Positions 3,927 through 20,839 of a stretch of DNA of 64,000 nucleotides are shown here, one piece after another. The stretch is from Escherichia phage vB_EcoM_LNA2. The position numbers were made by a program, and so were the translations under genes. The notes beneath the pieces were generated by a model. It was not told the origin of the DNA. It made no database searches and saw nothing but the letters and a program-made list of their open reading frames with translations. Every line of letters begins with the position of its first letter. Within the stretch, counting starts at the first letter, position 1. The DNA lies in sequence record MZ311865.1, one strand, 5' to 3'.

Positions 3927-5695
3927 AACCTGAAGAAATGAAATCCATGCGTAGAAATAAGGTCATTGCCGATAATAAACCACAAAAAGTAGCTGCAACA
4001 GCAGCTACCGATTCATTAGAAGCATTGAATGACATTTCATCAAAACTAGACGATGTCCAAGCCGCGTCTGAACTCACATCACAAAGTGTAGAAGATAAAG
4101 GCAATGGAATTATTGAATCAATTGGAGACTTAAAGAATTCGACAGATAATACTGCTGAAGGCACAGAGCTTATCGCAGAAGTTATTGAAAAACAAACTGA
4201 AGTCACTAAAAGTATAAACGAAGTTTCTAGTGCAATAAGCTCTAAGTTAGACCGATTAGCTACATTATTAGAGCAAAAATTACAAGCATCTACCGCTATT
4301 CAAAATACAGGAGGCACCTCTCTTGAAGTAATTGAGAACGCGATACCTGTTAAAGTGGTTGAGAATGAAACTTCTGATGAGTTGTTTAAAGCATTACCTA
4401 CACCTGAAAAGATTGATAATAAGCCAGACGAAGATTTCTTCCCAACACCGGTTCAAGAAAGTGCTAATTCTACTTCCGATTCTAAAGGCGGAATTAGCTT
4501 TAAATTGAGCGATAAAATTGCAATGCTCACCAAAACAGTTCAAACCGGGTTTAATAAATCAATATCAATTTCAGACAGAATTGCTGGAATGCTTTTCAAA
4601 TACACTATAACAGCTGCTATTGAAGCAGCAAAAATGGCCGCACTTATTCTTGGTATTGTTATCGGTATTGATTTATTGATAGTCCATTTCAAATATTGGA
4701 CAGACAAGTTCACTTCTGCCTGGGATTTATTTGATGAAAACTTTACTAAATTCTCCGATGAAGCTAAAGAGTGGGGTAAATTCTTAAGCGATATATTCAC
4801 CTCTGTTGACTCGATAAAACAATTATGGGAAGCTGGAGACTGGGGTGGTTTAACCGTTGCTATTGTCAAAGGTGTAGGAACAGCATTAATGAACTTAGGT
4901 GAACTAATTCAATTAGGAATGGCTAAACTCTCCGCGTCTATATTGCGTGCTATAGGTTTTGGCGATACGGCGGACGAAATAGAAGGACGTGCTTTAGAAG
5001 GATTCCAAGAAACTACTGGGAACAAATTAAAGAAAGAAGACCAAGAGAAAGTCGCTAAATATCAAATGAAGCGTGACGATGGGGAATTAGGAACCGTTTC
5101 TAAAGGTCTTGATATGTTACAACGCGGCAAAACATTCGTTACTAACTGGGTTCGTGGTAATGACAATAAAGAAGAGTTTAGTACAAGCGATGAGCGTGCT
5201 GCGGAATCAGCAAAATTAAAAGAGCTACCTGAAGAGGAGCGTAAAGAGGCATATATAAAAGCTAATGAAACTCGTGCGGCACTGGTTAGATTTGAGGATT
5301 ATATCGATAAAATCGATATGACTAATCCGGAAAATGCTAAAAACGTCGAGAAGTCTTATGCTGATTTAAGTAAACTTATTAAAGACCCTGAACTTAATAA
5401 AACTCCTGTTGTTAAAAAGGAAATAGACGCTAGATTTGAAAAGCTAAATAATAAAATGGCTGAAGCCAAAAAGGCTCAGACAACAGTTAAGCCTGAATCT
5501 TCGTCTAAATCTCCAGAAGCAAAACAAGTTCAGTCAATAGAGAAAGGACGTGCTTCTGAATCTAAACAACAGCAACCGGTAGCGGCGATTAGTAACACAA
5601 ATAATGTCGTCAAAAAGAATACCGTAGTCCAGAATATGACCCCTGTAACAAGTACAACGGCTCCTGGAATTTTCCATGCCACCGGTGTTAATTAA
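3923..5695 (+). CDS. 29: baseplate hub / tail length determinator gp29
   Basis: 590 aa, T4 gp29 length; extended low-complexity charged regions typical of tape-measure-like gp29. Confidence 0.85.
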   Translation: MKPEEMKSMRRNKVIADNKPQKVAATAATDSLEALNDISSKLDDVQAASELTSQSVEDKGNGIIESIGDLKNSTDNTAEGTELIAEVIEKQTEVTKSINEVSSAISSKLDRLATLLEQKLQASTAIQNTGGTSLEVIENAIPVKVVENETSDELFKALPTPEKIDNKPDEDFFPTPVQESANSTSDSKGGISFKLSDKIAMLTKTVQTGFNKSISISDRIAGMLFKYTITAAIEAAKMAALILGIVIGIDLLIVHFKYWTDKFTSAWDLFDENFTKFSDEAKEWGKFLSDIFTSVDSIKQLWEAGDWGGLTVAIVKGVGTALMNLGELIQLGMAKLSASILRAIGFGDTADEIEGRALEGFQETTGNKLKKEDQEKVAKYQMKRDDGELGTVSKGLDMLQRGKTFVTNWVRGNDNKEEFSTSDERAAESAKLKELPEEERKEAYIKANETRAALVRFEDYIDKIDMTNPENAKNVEKSYADLSKLIKDPELNKTPVVKKEIDARFEKLNNKMAEAKKAQTTVKPESSSKSPEAKQVQSIEKGRASESKQQQPVAAISNTNNVVKKNTVVQNMTPVTSTTAPGIFHATGVN

Positions 5696-5703
5696 GGATT
5701 ATT

Positions 5704-6813
5704 ATGATTAGTGTAAAAGAAATAGTAGTAGATGCAAAGGATTTAAATAAAGCAATCCCAGTCTCAGAAAGTGCTGGGCAAAGCACTAAAACCGAAACAA
5801 CTACTAAAACTTATGTTGCTCAATTTCCTACAGGAAGAGCAGCCGGAAATGACTCCACAGGAGACTTCCAGGTAACAGACCTTTATAAGAATGGATTATT
5901 ATTTACCGCGTACAATATGTCTGCACGCGATTCAGGATCCCTCAGGAATTTACGTCCGGCATACGCCGGGACTTCATCTAATGGTATCATATCAGATTTA
6001 ACCGATAATGTGAAAGATGCAGTGACTAAATTCTCAAACGGATTGCTTCCTGCTGGAGCTAATAAATCTACCATAAATAAAACTCCTGTTGCCAATATCC
6101 TTTTGCCACGTTCCAAATCTGACGTTGATACAACTTCACATCGTTTTAATGATATCGGTGATAGTCTTATTACTAAAGGTGGAGGTACTGCTACGGGTGT
6201 TTTAAGTAACATTGCTTCTACTGCAGTCTTTGGTGCATTAGATTCTATTACCCAAGGGCTTATGGCTGATAATAACGAACAGATTTATACGACTTCTCGT
6301 AGTATGTATGGTGGTGCTGAGAACCGTACTAAAGTCTTTACATGGGATTTAACTCCGCGTTCAACTGAAGACCTTATGGCTATTATAAACATTTACCAGT
6401 ATTTTAACTATTTCTCATATGGTGAGACAGGTAAATCACAATACGCCCAAGAGATTAAAAGTTATTTAGACGAATGGTACCGTTCAACGTTTATTGAGCC
6501 TATGACACCAGATGATGCAGTAAAAAATAAGACATTGTTTGAAAAGATTACTGCGTCATTAACAAATGTATTAGTTGTAAGTAACCCTACAATTTGGATG
6601 GTTAAAAACTTTGGTTATACATCTAAATTTGACGGGTTAACTGATGTATTTGGCCCATGTCAAATTCAAAGCGTACGTTTTGATAAAACTCCAAATGGAC
6701 AATTTAATGGTCTCGCTGTTGCTCCTAACTTACCATCAACATTTACGTTAGAGATAACAATGCGAGAAATTATTACATTAAACCGTTCTTCACTTTATGC
6801 GGGGACTTTCTAA
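5704..6813 (+). CDS. 48: baseplate tail-tube junction protein gp48
   Basis: 369 aa; synteny 29-48-54. Confidence 0.85.
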   Translation: MISVKEIVVDAKDLNKAIPVSESAGQSTKTETTTKTYVAQFPTGRAAGNDSTGDFQVTDLYKNGLLFTAYNMSARDSGSLRNLRPAYAGTSSNGIISDLTDNVKDAVTKFSNGLLPAGANKSTINKTPVANILLPRSKSDVDTTSHRFNDIGDSLITKGGGTATGVLSNIASTAVFGALDSITQGLMADNNEQIYTTSRSMYGGAENRTKVFTWDLTPRSTEDLMAIINIYQYFNYFSYGETGKSQYAQEIKSYLDEWYRSTFIEPMTPDDAVKNKTLFEKITASLTNVLVVSNPTIWMVKNFGYTSKFDGLTDVFGPCQIQSVRFDKTPNGQFNGLAVAPNLPSTFTLEITMREIITLNRSSLYAGTF

Positions 6814-16021: not shown

Positions 16022-16270
16022 TTACTTCAGGGTAATAATAAAATGACGTACTGCTTTACGTGCGGCAGAAGCCAGAGGCTTAGCATATTTCAATTCATCT
16101 TTCTGGACCAGGATATCGCGAAGATCGGCTTGTGCTGGATTCAGATGTTTGAAATACTGTAAGATTTCGAGGGCTTCGGCTTCGACATCAATAGATGCAC
16201 CGTAATTTTCGTGGCCATTATTCCATGCATGGCGTTGCAGTTCAAGAGCGTGTTGTAATTGTTTAATCAT
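16022..16270 (-). CDS. rIII: rIII lysis-inhibition accessory protein
   Basis: 82 aa, T4 rIII length, adjacent to gene 31 as in T4. Confidence 0.75.
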   Translation of the reverse strand: MIKQLQHALELQRHAWNNGHENYGASIDVEAEALEILQYFKHLNPAQADLRDILVQKDELKYAKPLASAARKAVRHFIITLK

Positions 16271-16394: not shown

Positions 16395-16727
16395 TCACTT
16401 ATAAAGACACGGAATAGCTTTATAGTGGCATGTTACGAATTTCTGTTTAATTTCTTTAGGTTGTTTAAGTCCCAAAGCCACAAATGGATGTGGAACATTT
16501 CGAATTTGTCCAACTGGTATTGGAGTCAAATCACCGACTTCAACAAAACCTTCAGGAACATCAGGACCTACAGAATGAACTACACATAGTTCAGGAACTT
16601 CACCTTGAACACGTTTACCAATCACAAGTCCTGATTCTGTAACTTCTTCATCACCTGCTTGAGCTGGTTCAGAAACCAGAATGACATATTCACCAACAGC
16701 ACGAATTGGGAGTTGTACTTCAGACAT
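16395..16727 (-). CDS. 31: co-chaperonin gp31 (GroES-like)
   Basis: 110 aa; sequence matches T4 gp31 as I recall it ([34 protein letters not shown]...). Confidence 0.85.
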
Positions 16728-16784: not shown

Positions 16785-17093
16785 TTACATAAGAAGCAAA
16801 CGTTCCGCCGGAGTACCATCAACCGAAATTACTTTATCAAGGCGGAAAGAACGCCACTGGCCTAACTTGGTATCGAATGCTCGAACTGATTCACGAGGTT
16901 CATAACGAACTTCTGTTGCTGGATTGTTATTTTCATATTTGACTTCAAGTTCATCGCGCGAAGCAAACATAGTGCGTACCTCGCCGTTAGCCTTTTCAAA
17001 TACAACACAATGAACGCCTACAGACAGAATAGTTTTAATACGTTCACGAAGAACCATAGTTTCTTGTTCAGTTAAAATCATATTATTCACCAC
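16785..17093 (-). CDS. hypothetical protein (31.1-like position)
   Basis: 102-aa ORF between gene 31 and cd. Confidence 0.4.
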   Translation of the reverse strand: MVNNMILTEQETMVLRERIKTILSVGVHCVVFEKANGEVRTMFASRDELEVKYENNNPATEVRYEPRESVRAFDTKLGQWRSFRLDKVISVDGTPAERLLLM

Positions 17094-17664
17094 AAAAGTT
17101 TCGGATTTGTTCCCAATTCAGAGAACGAAGATTATTACGAGAGTACTGAATTACTTCAATACCGGCTTGTTTTAGAATGTCTGCCCAATTTTCAGGAGAT
17201 CGATCGTATAATTCTGCGTATACAACCTTTTTAATACCTGACTGCGTAATAGCTTTAGTGCAATCAGGACATGGAGAAAGCGTCGTATATAACGTAGCGC
17301 CTTCAATAGAATTACCTTTACGAGCTGCAAACAAAATTGCATTCAATTCTGCATGGATTTCATTATTAGCAGACCATGCACTATGAGCGGCCCGATGTTC
17401 TTTAGCCAAAACAAAATTATCTGCCCGTCCAAATGCTGTAGTGCCTTCTTTATGTCCAGCAACGATGACCGGGCTTGGTTTATTCTTCAACCAACCATTT
17501 TCGGATGCATGTTCACAACAGTTAACGCCACCTGCTGGTGAGCCATTATATCCAGTAGAGATAATGCGCCCATCTTTTTCAATGACTGCGCCAACTTTCC
17601 ATGAACAACATTTTGATTCTTGAGAAATCAGATATGCAATCTGAAGGTATGTGCTAGCTTTCAT
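17083..17664 (-). CDS. cd: dCMP deaminase
   Basis: 193 aa; zinc-binding deaminase motifs HAELNAI and SPCPDC; T4 Cd length. Confidence 0.9.
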   Translation of the reverse strand: MKASTYLQIAYLISQESKCCSWKVGAVIEKDGRIISTGYNGSPAGGVNCCEHASENGWLKNKPSPVIVAGHKEGTTAFGRADNFVLAKEHRAAHSAWSANNEIHAELNAILFAARKGNSIEGATLYTTLSPCPDCTKAITQSGIKKVVYAELYDRSPENWADILKQAGIEVIQYSRNNLRSLNWEQIRNFCGE

Positions 17665-18656
17665 TATTGAACCTTATTAATATAAGTTAACAGCTCTTTA
17701 GTTTGTTCCCAACTGATGCACGCATCGGTAACGGAAACGCCATAGGACATATTATCAGAAATTTTTTGATTTCCTTCATGTAGGAATGATTCTATCATAA
17801 TTCCTTTGACCAAATCATTAGCTGCTAAATTTTTACCAATACCAATTTGATTGCTATAATGTCCATCAGCGTTTGCATGGCTACAGTCAACCATTACATA
17901 ATGATTCAGACCTACTGCCCTTGCTTTGTTAGAAGCTTCTTGAATATCAGAAGAATGATAGTTCGGGCCGTTGGTCCCGCCACGCAATACGATATGCGTA
18001 TTCTGATTACCTTCAGCTTCAACAATGCCTACAGTACCATCGACGTCCATACCCATATACCGATGAGGCCAGGCGGCACTATACATCGCGTCTGTAGCTA
18101 CTTTAATAGAACCATTGGTTGCGTTCTTGAAGCCTACGCACATCGGTAGACCTGAAGCAATTTCACGATGTGTCTGACTTTCAGTCGTACGGGCGCCAAT
18201 AGCAACCCATGAGAAAATACCAGAAAGATACTTAATCGTGAATGGGTCTAATACTTCAGTTGCTAATGGAAGTCCCATACGTAGAAGTTTACGACACAAT
18301 GTTCGTGCAACTATAAGACCGTGGTTCATATCAAAACTTCCGTCAAGATATGGATCATTTACAAGACCTTTCCAACCTACGGTAGTTCGAGGCTTTTCAA
18401 AATAAACGCGCATCACTAACAGAACATTAGGAAGACGAGTTTGAAGTTCAGCCAGACGTTTGCCGTATTCAACAGCAGCAATAGGGTCATGAATTGAACA
18501 AGGACCTACAACAATAAGTTTGCGTGGGTCTTCACCATTCATAATCGAATTAACTTGTTCGCGATGAGAAGCCACTTGTGATGCGTAAGCTTCCGACAAA
18601 GGAATAATCTCAGCTAGTTCTTTTGGAGAAATAAGTTTTCCGACGACAGGTAACAT
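17664..18656 (-). CDS. DAHP synthase (phospho-2-dehydro-3-deoxyheptonate aldolase), AroF/AroG-like
   Basis: 330 aa with class I DAHP synthase signatures (VVGPCSIHDP, RVYFEKPRTTVGWKGL, GARTTESQTHRE, VMVDCSHAN, GVSVTDACISWE); locally higher GC than flanks. Confidence 0.85.
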   Translation of the reverse strand: MLPVVGKLISPKELAEIIPLSEAYASQVASHREQVNSIMNGEDPRKLIVVGPCSIHDPIAAVEYGKRLAELQTRLPNVLLVMRVYFEKPRTTVGWKGLVNDPYLDGSFDMNHGLIVARTLCRKLLRMGLPLATEVLDPFTIKYLSGIFSWVAIGARTTESQTHREIASGLPMCVGFKNATNGSIKVATDAMYSAAWPHRYMGMDVDGTVGIVEAEGNQNTHIVLRGGTNGPNYHSSDIQEASNKARAVGLNHYVMVDCSHANADGHYSNQIGIGKNLAANDLVKGIMIESFLHEGNQKISDNMSYGVSVTDACISWEQTKELLTYINKVQ

Positions 18657-18776
18657 AACAATCCTTAGGAGATATAAACAGATTCTGATTCAACAATACC
18701 TTTAACCGGATTAGACAGGCTAAGTTGGTAGTGCTCAGATTTATGACCATTCTCGATAGTAATGAGATAGCTCTCA

Positions 18777-19013
18777 TTATAGTGTTCCATATACTCGAGT
18801 TGCTTCAACAAGACCATCGCTGCCTAATTTAAGATTAGTAATTTGGTCACCATCTTTAGGATTAACGATTATGAGAAAAGAACGTGGAGATTCTTGAATA
18901 ACTCGTAATGTTGCATCTTGGAAACGTTCAGACACTTTATTGATGAGTGCTTGAGCAAATTCTTTTACTTTAATCTGAAATTCGTGTACTGTAATTGGGT
19001 TTTCACTTAGCAT
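18777..19013 (-). CDS. hypothetical protein
   Basis: 78-aa ORF downstream of a promoter cassette. Confidence 0.4.
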   Translation of the reverse strand: MLSENPITVHEFQIKVKEFAQALINKVSERFQDATLRVIQESPRSFLIIVNPKDGDQITNLKLGSDGLVEATRVYGTL

Positions 19014-19040: not shown

Positions 19041-19070
19041 TATAGTATCACAACTCCACCATGTTGTAAA
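19041..19070 (-). promoter_or_regulatory. early-type promoter cassette with hairpin around -10
   Basis: Minus-strand GTTTAC-18nt-TACTAT; inverted repeat GGTGGAGTT...AACTCTACC flanks the -10. Confidence 0.5.

Positions 19071-19752: not shown

Positions 19753-19753
<1 letters not shown>
19562..19753 (-). CDS. hypothetical protein
   Basis: 63-aa ORF directly downstream of pseT. Confidence 0.4.

Positions 19754-20839
<1,086 letters not shown>

Follow-up and report, generated by a model that had tools for sequence, protein, structure and literature searches.

Classical auxiliary metabolic genes (AMGs) of phages, for example psbA and talC of cyanophages, replace a flux-controlling step of the host. 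Here we describe a candidate for such a gene in the shikimate pathway, the gene for DAHP synthase (DAHP being the 7-phosphate of 3-deoxy-D-arabino-heptulosonate) of Escherichia phage vB_EcoM_LNA2 (record MZ311865.1), which lies directly upstream of the dCMP (deoxycytidine monophosphate) deaminase gene cd in the 64,000-nucleotide (nt) stretch that was analysed, which we refer to as the window. The closest described enzymes are the feedback-inhibited isozymes of Escherichia coli. In AroG the canonical inhibitor site for aromatic amino acids comprises P150, Q151, D155, S180 and F209 together with the N-terminus of the partner subunit, and from the AroG-Phe structure we take this N-terminal segment to close the inhibitor pocket. 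The AroG variant P150L is fully Phe-resistant and S180F and F209A/S are feedback-resistant, the S180/S181 side chain binds the main chain of the inhibitor, Q151 is involved in inhibition and D155 makes a stabilising salt bridge (PMC9529685), whilst deletion of Ile11 from AroF abolishes its feedback inhibition (PMC10729320).

The phage protein keeps the catalytic residues of these enzymes and differs from them at the inhibitor site. We put a probability of roughly 0.6 on its being an active DAHP synthase in which end-product control has been rewritten, most likely to insensitivity towards Tyr, Phe and Trp, such that DAHP synthesis would continue during infection regardless of the aromatic pool. 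The gene is located as follows:

17664..18656, minus strand: DAHP synthase coding sequence (CDS), 330 amino acids (aa), ATG start, class I-alpha, phage-clade type

Catalytic core and inhibitor pocket

Every sequence motif on which the original prediction based a class I DAHP synthase of the AroF/AroG family is present in the 330-aa open reading frame (ORF), and database searches bore out membership of the AroF/G/H family as opposed to KdsA, the 3-deoxy-D-manno-octulosonate 8-phosphate (KDO8P) synthase. Pfam DAHP_synth_1 (PF00793) matched at E = 5e-75 (252 bits, cutoff 25.5), and the protein passed both the NCBIfam aroFGH equivalog TIGR00034 (427.7 bits, cutoff 173.2) and PRK12755 (455 bits, cutoff 343), with scores under the cutoffs of the class-specific models (NF006723/NF009396, the AroG/AroH classes) at 363 bits against 568 for AroG and 386 bits against 463 for AroH. 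The best solved relative is E. coli AroF (6AGL/6AGM, E = 5e-105), followed by the Neisseria, Francisella and E. coli AroG enzymes; all 21 sequence matches in the PDB are DAHP synthases, and no KdsA model is among the NCBIfam matches. Alignment to AroG places metal ligands at C53, H260, E289 and D311 (AroG C61, H268, E302 and D326) and phosphoenolpyruvate (PEP) and erythrose 4-phosphate (E4P) residues at R83, K88, R90, R156, K177 and R225 (AroG R92, K97, R99, R165, K186 and R234), including the KPR(T/S) motif, retained as KPRT. All ten positions are thus kept, where the original prediction had named loss of catalytic residues as grounds for dropping the assignment, and all ten are invariant across the 125 aligned sequences.

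An AlphaFold (AF2) model built on 35 homologues, which is a predicted and not a solved structure, reached a mean predicted local distance difference test score (pLDDT) of 90 and a predicted template modelling score (pTM) of 0.90. It forms the (beta/alpha)8 barrel with the I-alpha decorations, and Foldseek aligned it to the AroG, Neisseria and Francisella enzymes with template modelling (TM) scores of 0.93–0.96 and root-mean-square deviations (rmsd) of 1.4–1.8 Å (TM 0.95 and ca. 1.5 Å for AroG and the Neisseria enzyme). We infer that its product is a class I-alpha DAHP synthase competent for catalysis, converting PEP and E4P to DAHP. It is very unlikely that the protein is instead an aldolase, KDO8P-synthase-like or other, that produces a sugar acid for lipopolysaccharide (LPS), capsule or DNA modification, or a non-catalytic host-takeover protein. 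PF00793 does also contain KdsA, and the listing of the domain in phiC120 ties it loosely to LPS (PMC8022965); against this stand the equivalog score of 428 bits, the lack of any KdsA match, the retention of KPRT and of all E4P, PEP and metal residues, and a local gene order with no other pathway genes near the synthase, its neighbours being ordinary T4 genes. For the more speculative role named in the original prediction, the supply of a precursor for a DNA modification, this gene order speaks neither for nor against.

The evidence for altered regulation comes from an unbiased scan, blind to function, of all alignment columns with at least 90% conservation among the 26 phage-clade sequences and also among the 98 bacterial ones. 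Such doubly conserved columns numbered 104; 98 hold the same residue in both groups, whilst six differ between phage clade and bacteria, namely P150I, Q151K, D155G, S180P, F209Y and T223A in AroG numbering, corresponding to I141, K142, G146, P171, Y200 and A214 of the window protein. Five of these six columns are published feedback-site positions (Fisher p = 8e-6 for the enrichment), and the sixth, T223, is two residues from V221, where the V221A variant is feedback-resistant. The bacterial residues at the pocket are close to universal (Q151 in 98/98, S180 in 97/98, F209 in 97/98, D155 in 95/98 and P150 in 91/98), whereas K or R at position 151 and P at position 180 are found in all 26 phage sequences, and the replacement residues are almost invariant (25–26 of 26) though members of the clade are only 53–100% identical to each other. 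The window protein does not have the canonical inhibitor site. The original prediction had suspected deregulation from the N-terminus, and the clustering of clade-separating positions at the feedback site strengthens that suspicion well beyond it. This clade-wide rewriting of the inhibitor pocket is possibly new.

The N-terminus itself is shorter than in AroG and AroF as had been noticed, by 8–9 residues and not by the 15–20 first estimated. Phage-clade proteins have 8–12 residues before the conserved Pro, bacterial ones at least 16 (median 19), and in the alignment the window protein is without AroG residues 1–8 (including D6 and D7) and AroF residues 1–9 (including N8); two internal gaps and a shorter C-terminus account for the rest of the 20–26 aa length deficit. 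No further in-frame start is present in the sequence upstream of the synthase ATG, so the 330 aa are the full length.

In IMG/VR, the six-residue signature IKGPYA together with the short N-terminus was found in 10 of 10 T4-like loci, and the signature in 0 of 70 other loci of the viral collection; these are for the most part giant-virus bins and other contigs, and almost all have the canonical PQDSFT. Aeromonas phage HJ05, an unrelated 79-kb phage, encodes a distant DAHP synthase (38% identity, positions 4899–6062 of its locus) whose inhibitor-site residues are non-canonical (A, H, P, P, V). It is the only credible second phage lineage among the other “phage” DAHP synthases, and it is possible that it represents a second independent case of a phage altering this pocket. 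Other apparent replicates were rejected: “Acinetobacter phage MD-2021a” consists of bacterial contigs (cob operon) with the canonical inhibitor site, and two unverified faecal scaffolds are of a different subtype and uncertain origin. The former record (CAKLQH020000056.1) carries aroF beside a cobalamin operon (cobS, cobT, cobU) and is probably mislabelled bacterial sequence. We also observed class I DAHP synthases with the canonical inhibitor site in many giant-virus (GVMAG) bins of IMG/VR; some 12 GVMAG frames are ca. 650 aa long, which suggests fusion to another domain, and these may be true viral genes or cellular contamination.

Several observations weigh against the reading proposed at the outset. 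Of 12 pocket positions listed in the literature, 11 show at least 90% conservation within the phage clade, where the background is 44% (binomial p = 8e-4), which fits a pocket kept for some purpose better than an abandoned one. The replacements P to I, Q to K, S to P, D to G and F to Y differ from the P150L, S180F and F209A/S changes tested in E. coli, and the retention of AroF-type Pro and Gly at AroG positions 147 and 211 makes residual Tyr sensitivity possible. T4, RB69 and Dhakavirus are without the gene, so any benefit would be conditional, and the early expression proposed below is predicted from promoter homology. In the searchable literature we found no functional study of the phage gene beyond passing mentions (PMC11845039, PMC8022965).

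The conservation of the pocket raises the possibility, which we consider unlikely, that it has been rebuilt as a re-tuned allosteric site for an infection-relevant ligand such as a nucleotide, chorismate/prephenate or a phage-specific metabolite. The near invariance of the replacement residues in so diverged a clade would fit such a site, as would the change of Q to K, which adds a charge, and of F to Y, which adds a hydroxyl, both more than cavity filling requires; the neighbouring cd moreover encodes an enzyme under allosteric control by hydroxymethyl-dCTP (hm-dCTP) and dCTP, according to a note in the T4 record. No result indicates a ligand, however, the conservation is explained equally well by packing that locks the active conformation, and the N-terminal lid of the pocket is missing. 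We regard it as quite unlikely that the protein is an ordinary Tyr-sensitive, AroF-like isozyme that adds capacity, with the substitutions as neutral lineage markers. Its best solved and named relatives are AroF, and the two AroF-type residues are kept, but the inhibitor site is where the six clade-fixed differences, the only ones in 104 columns, cluster, residues found in 98/98 (Q151) and 97/98 (S180) bacteria are K/R and P in every phage sequence, mutations of these positions in E. coli abolish inhibition (PMC9529685), and the N-terminal segment is absent. We favour an enzyme that is active and insensitive to the aromatic amino acids.

Origin and distribution of the gene

The original prediction regarded the gene as host-like and recently acquired from a host, since it is richer in G+C than its flanks. 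The excess is real and small, the G+C content being 0.410 in the synthase gene (third highest among the 74 ORFs) and 0.380 in the other window genes, and it lies wholly in codon positions 1 and 2 (0.547/0.396 against 0.492/0.366), which means that it reflects amino-acid composition. At the third codon position (GC3) the gene is phage-like, at 0.287 against 0.284 for the other window genes and 0.50–0.57 for E. coli aroF/G/H, and its relative synonymous codon usage (RSCU) correlates with that of the other window genes at r = 0.889, within the span of 0.59–0.96 set by 25 large genes, and with that of E. coli aroFGH at r = 0.23. In other phages the G+C content of the gene follows the locus in which it resides (0.325 against 0.312 in PM2, 0.443 against 0.425 in PWKp18).

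Protein comparisons agree with the codon usage. Identity to E. coli AroF, AroG and AroH is 51, 47 and 43%, and a search of 5.8 billion proteins returned a phage group at 55–98% identity and 319–343 aa, followed by a plateau at 50–54% which spans Planctomycetota, Pontiella, Pseudomonadota and enterobacterial AroF, with no cellular homologue above ca. 54%. Neighbour joining of 125 sequences placed the 26 of the phage group in a single split (173 of 200 bootstraps) that is not nested within Enterobacterales AroF. The gene is also linked to cd in at least four genera, lying directly upstream of it in Kanagawavirus and Marfavirus and two small genes away in Bragavirus, and synthase identity to the window copy (77, 67 and 59% in these three genera) runs parallel to that of cd (84, 80 and 65%) and gp31 (86, 69 and 44%). 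An estimate of dN/dS within Mosigvirus was abandoned because the differences were too few (10 variable sites among three genomes).

Recent capture from an enterobacterial host, with the composition still host-like, is thus extremely unlikely. Apart from the high rank in G+C nothing favours it, and it is at odds with the GC3 and codon usage, with the distance to all cellular homologues and the separate position of the monophyletic phage clade, with the tracking of each phage locus in G+C, and with the fragment of another phage's cd.2 gene that accompanies the synthase in the window (see below). Recent host capture and functions other than DAHP synthesis can both be regarded as essentially excluded, and our analysis corrects the former reading: judged by its sequence relationships, the gene belongs to a lineage that has long resided in T4-like phages of Enterobacterales.

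The protein turned up in 212 GenBank records when 50,697 phage records were searched by translation; of these, 139 are at least 95% identical, 47 are 60–80% identical and 26 are below 60%, the last group including Proteus phages at 58–59%; a few of the 212 records are non-T4-like or mislabelled bacterial contigs. Carriers include Kanagawavirus Entb_45, Marfavirus PWKp18, Erwinia phage Virsaitis27, Serratia phage X20, Escherichia phage EcS1 and Edwardsiella phage PEi26. As a cellular-type gene stably carried by phages with phage-like GC3 and RSCU, it qualifies as an AMG, and it has been proposed as one in a Kanagawavirus (PMC11845039). The gene as such is not new: many records already annotate it as phospho-2-dehydro-3-deoxyheptonate aldolase, aroF or DAHP synthase, and PHROG has it as family 5045, filed under “moron, auxiliary metabolic gene and host takeover”. 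Since its presence is already on record at the annotation level, reporting it adds little by itself, and the new content is modest, namely the rewriting of the pocket and the scar of a phage-to-phage cassette.

The Mosigvirus cassette and its probable transcription unit

With 98–99% identity to genomes such as PNJ-6, HX01, ST0 and JS09, the window is that of a Mosigvirus, the RB69 group among T4-like phages. Its genes follow the standard T4 order, which in T4 itself runs locally pseT, cd.5, cd.4, cd.3, early promoter Pe133295, cd.2, cd.1, cd, 31.2, 31.1, 31 and rIII. The gene is absent from T4, as had been supposed, and its place between the pseT-side small genes and cd is the slot that cd.1 fills in T4. 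T4 Cd.1 was considered as a decayed remnant of the synthase and rejected for want of similarity (E = 12). The features around the synthase are:

17083..17664, minus strand: cd, dCMP deaminase, directly downstream of the synthase, Pfam dCMP_cyt_deam_1, 72.5% identity to T4 Cd
17668..18761, minus strand: cassette of ca. 1.09 kb (leader plus DAHP synthase), the stretch left unmatched by blastn against RB69
18662..18666, minus strand: ribosome-binding site AAGGA, read from the sequence, with a 5-nt spacer TTGTT (18657–18661) before the ATG at 18656
18665..18790, minus strand: 41-aa ORF in the 120-nt leader, corresponding in diverged form to the 3' half of a foreign cd.2
18777..19013, minus strand: cd.2 homologue (DUF7320), 78 aa, Pfam DUF7320, 65% identity to T4 Cd.2 (E = 7e-35)
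19042..19070, minus strand: early-promoter-like site TTTACA-17-TACTAT with upstream TG, at the same position as T4 Pe133295

The flanks of the cassette are 88–100% identical to RB69 right to its edges. RB69 is without the gene, and there the cd.2 stop overlaps the cd start. The two cassette junctions share an imperfect repeat of ca. 20 nt around TAATGA(A/G)AGCTA. A search with the RB69 junction (positions 6237–6255 of the RB69 locus) found it uninterrupted in 20 records, 11 of them Mosigvirus (RB69 twice, ECO111 5-P, vB_Eco_mar005P1 five times, JK42, JK36 and moha) and nine more distant, at 77–79% identity (WG01, QL01 and relatives), which we take to be Dhakavirus. The cassette thus occurs as an indel within Mosigvirus, with 139 records (at least 95% identity) carrying the gene against 11 without it. 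In the Mosigvirus record mar005p1 (OZ035759) the junction query matches two separate places, as it does in cassette-bearing genomes. The synthase is dispensable for laboratory growth, since RB69 and moha are without it, and natural pairs of near-identical phages, one lacking the 1.09-kb cassette (as RB69 and moha do) and one carrying it (as most Mosigvirus do), are a ready system for measuring what the gene is worth.

The leader identifies the probable source of the cassette. Its 41-aa ORF matches phrog_15876 (1.9e-32) and, over profile positions 44–76 of 77, the Cd.2 family phrog_1504 (1.8e-5). Among Cd.2 homologues, that of Kanagawavirus Entb_45 shares 51% identity with it (E = 2e-7) and that of Marfavirus PWKp18 55% (E = 8e-6), compared with just 30% (E = 0.13) for the resident Cd.2, and it has no similarity to Cd.1. 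The ORF shares 14 nt with the end of resident cd.2, and its stop overlaps the ribosome-binding site of the synthase; it is annotated as a CDS in PNJ-6 and SSE1 and not in 308Ecol101PP. It appears to be a recombination scar, possibly one that is still translated. Given that cd.2 directly precedes the synthase in Kanagawavirus and Marfavirus, the simplest reading would be that the 3' half of cd.2 and the synthase moved together from such a phage into a cd.2/cd junction of the RB69 type. The foreign cd.2 fragment points to phage-to-phage transfer, and the Mosigvirus cassette was probably acquired from another T4-like phage. An insertion next to cd, as first proposed, is therefore a fair description of the locus, with a phage and not a host as the donor.

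The early-promoter-like site aligns with the T4 cd.3–cd.2 intergenic region, where the T4 record annotates an early promoter, and is near-identical to it over both hexamers. By this alignment with Pe133295 an early transcript of cd.2, leader, synthase and cd is expected, and the synthase is probably transcribed early, as one unit with cd.2 as the first gene and with cd. The TAA stop of the synthase and the ATG of cd share one base (TAATG at 17664), an overlap which indicates translational coupling of the two genes. No MotA box or late promoter was seen directly upstream of the synthase on reading the leader. A generic promoter scan of the region gave 11 sites against 14.9 expected in shuffled sequence and is thus no richer than chance, and for this reason only the Pe133295-homologous site was used. 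A regulatory RNA or attenuator in the 120-nt leader was considered and rejected, there being no Rfam match at E ≤ 1 and an ordinary folding energy (z = −0.69).

Further along the window, td and frd lie ca. 10 kb from the synthase. Similarity to T4 is mosaic, with gp31 (16395–16727, minus strand) 96% identical to its T4 counterpart, cd 72% and pseT (19753–20652, minus strand) 75%, and a 100-bp stretch inside rIII (16100–16199 within 16022–16270) is only 73% identical to RB69 in a flank otherwise 94–100% identical. The start of pseT is annotated inconsistently among near-identical genomes; the ORF has 299 aa from a GTG, and the gene is 900 nt long in PNJ-6 against 777 nt in 308Ecol101PP.

Proposed mechanism and comparison with known systems

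In the mechanism we propose, the gene would be transcribed early from the Pe133295 counterpart together with cd.2 and cd, yielding an enzyme with an unchanged catalytic centre, a rebuilt Tyr/Phe/Trp pocket and no N-terminal segment to close it. Aromatic amino acids would then not shut the enzyme off, and carbon could enter the shikimate pathway after host gene expression stops, even with the host AroG, AroF and AroH feedback-inhibited, so that phage production would be supplied with aromatic amino acids, with cofactors made from chorismate, or with both. The benefit could lie in aromatic amino acids for phage proteins or in chorismate-derived folate and quinones. Phe, Tyr and Trp make up 9.85% of the window-encoded proteins, which we assume to be somewhat above the E. 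coli average; as T4 presumably has a similar make-up and yet is without the gene, we give aromatic demand little weight. In hosts rich in amino acids the branches to Phe, Tyr and Trp stay inhibited, and the nucleotide metabolism of T-even phages is folate-hungry, with td and frd lying ca. 10 kb away as noted above. A wider idea, which we offer tentatively and think improbable, is that the DAHP synthases of T4-like phages form a distinct natural regulatory class with the pocket fixed as IKGPYA throughout the history of the clade, the enzyme either sensing an infection-specific effector or being locked on, with PheA, TyrA and TrpE inhibited and chorismate diverted to folate and quinones for the dTMP (deoxythymidine monophosphate) and hydroxymethyl-dCMP (hm-dCMP) pathway.

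What is predicted, in short, is a clade with a bacterial-type catalytic site and a pocket rewritten at the very positions that engineers mutate against feedback. If true, these would be natural feedback-resistant enzymes usable for the production of aromatic compounds, and a clear case of a phage overriding host control of a pathway at its committed step.

Set beside the known systems, the protein is closest to E. coli AroF, with which it shares 51% identity, the fold, identical metal, PEP and E4P residues, and Pro and Gly at AroG positions 147 and 211; it differs in having I-K for P151-Q152, G for D156, P for S181 and Y for F210, in the loss of the N-terminal residues with N8, and in its length of 330 aa against 356 aa. 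The resemblance to AroG and its feedback-resistant variants (P150L, S180F, F209A/S and D146N; 1KFL, 1GG1) extends to the predicted structure (TM 0.95, rmsd 1.5–1.7 Å for the model), and the phage clade is naturally substituted where single mutations confer Phe insensitivity (PMC9529685). The residues in the phage are different ones, however (I, K, G, P and Y), and are fixed jointly across the clade along with the N-terminal truncation. The synthases of other T4-like phages (PHROG 5045; Kanagawavirus, Marfavirus, Bragavirus) belong to the same clade, with the IKGPYA signature, a position upstream of cd and 319–343 aa, whereas the Mosigvirus gene follows a 120-nt leader left over from a foreign cd.2 and varies in presence between close relatives. 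T4 cd.1 occupies the same slot between cd.2 and cd in the early unit, but encodes 112 aa of unknown function without sequence similarity to the synthase. With AMGs of the cyanophage type the gene has in common that a single phage enzyme sits at the controlling step of a pathway, with no other genes of that pathway; the predicted target in this case would be the shikimate pathway of enterobacterial hosts.

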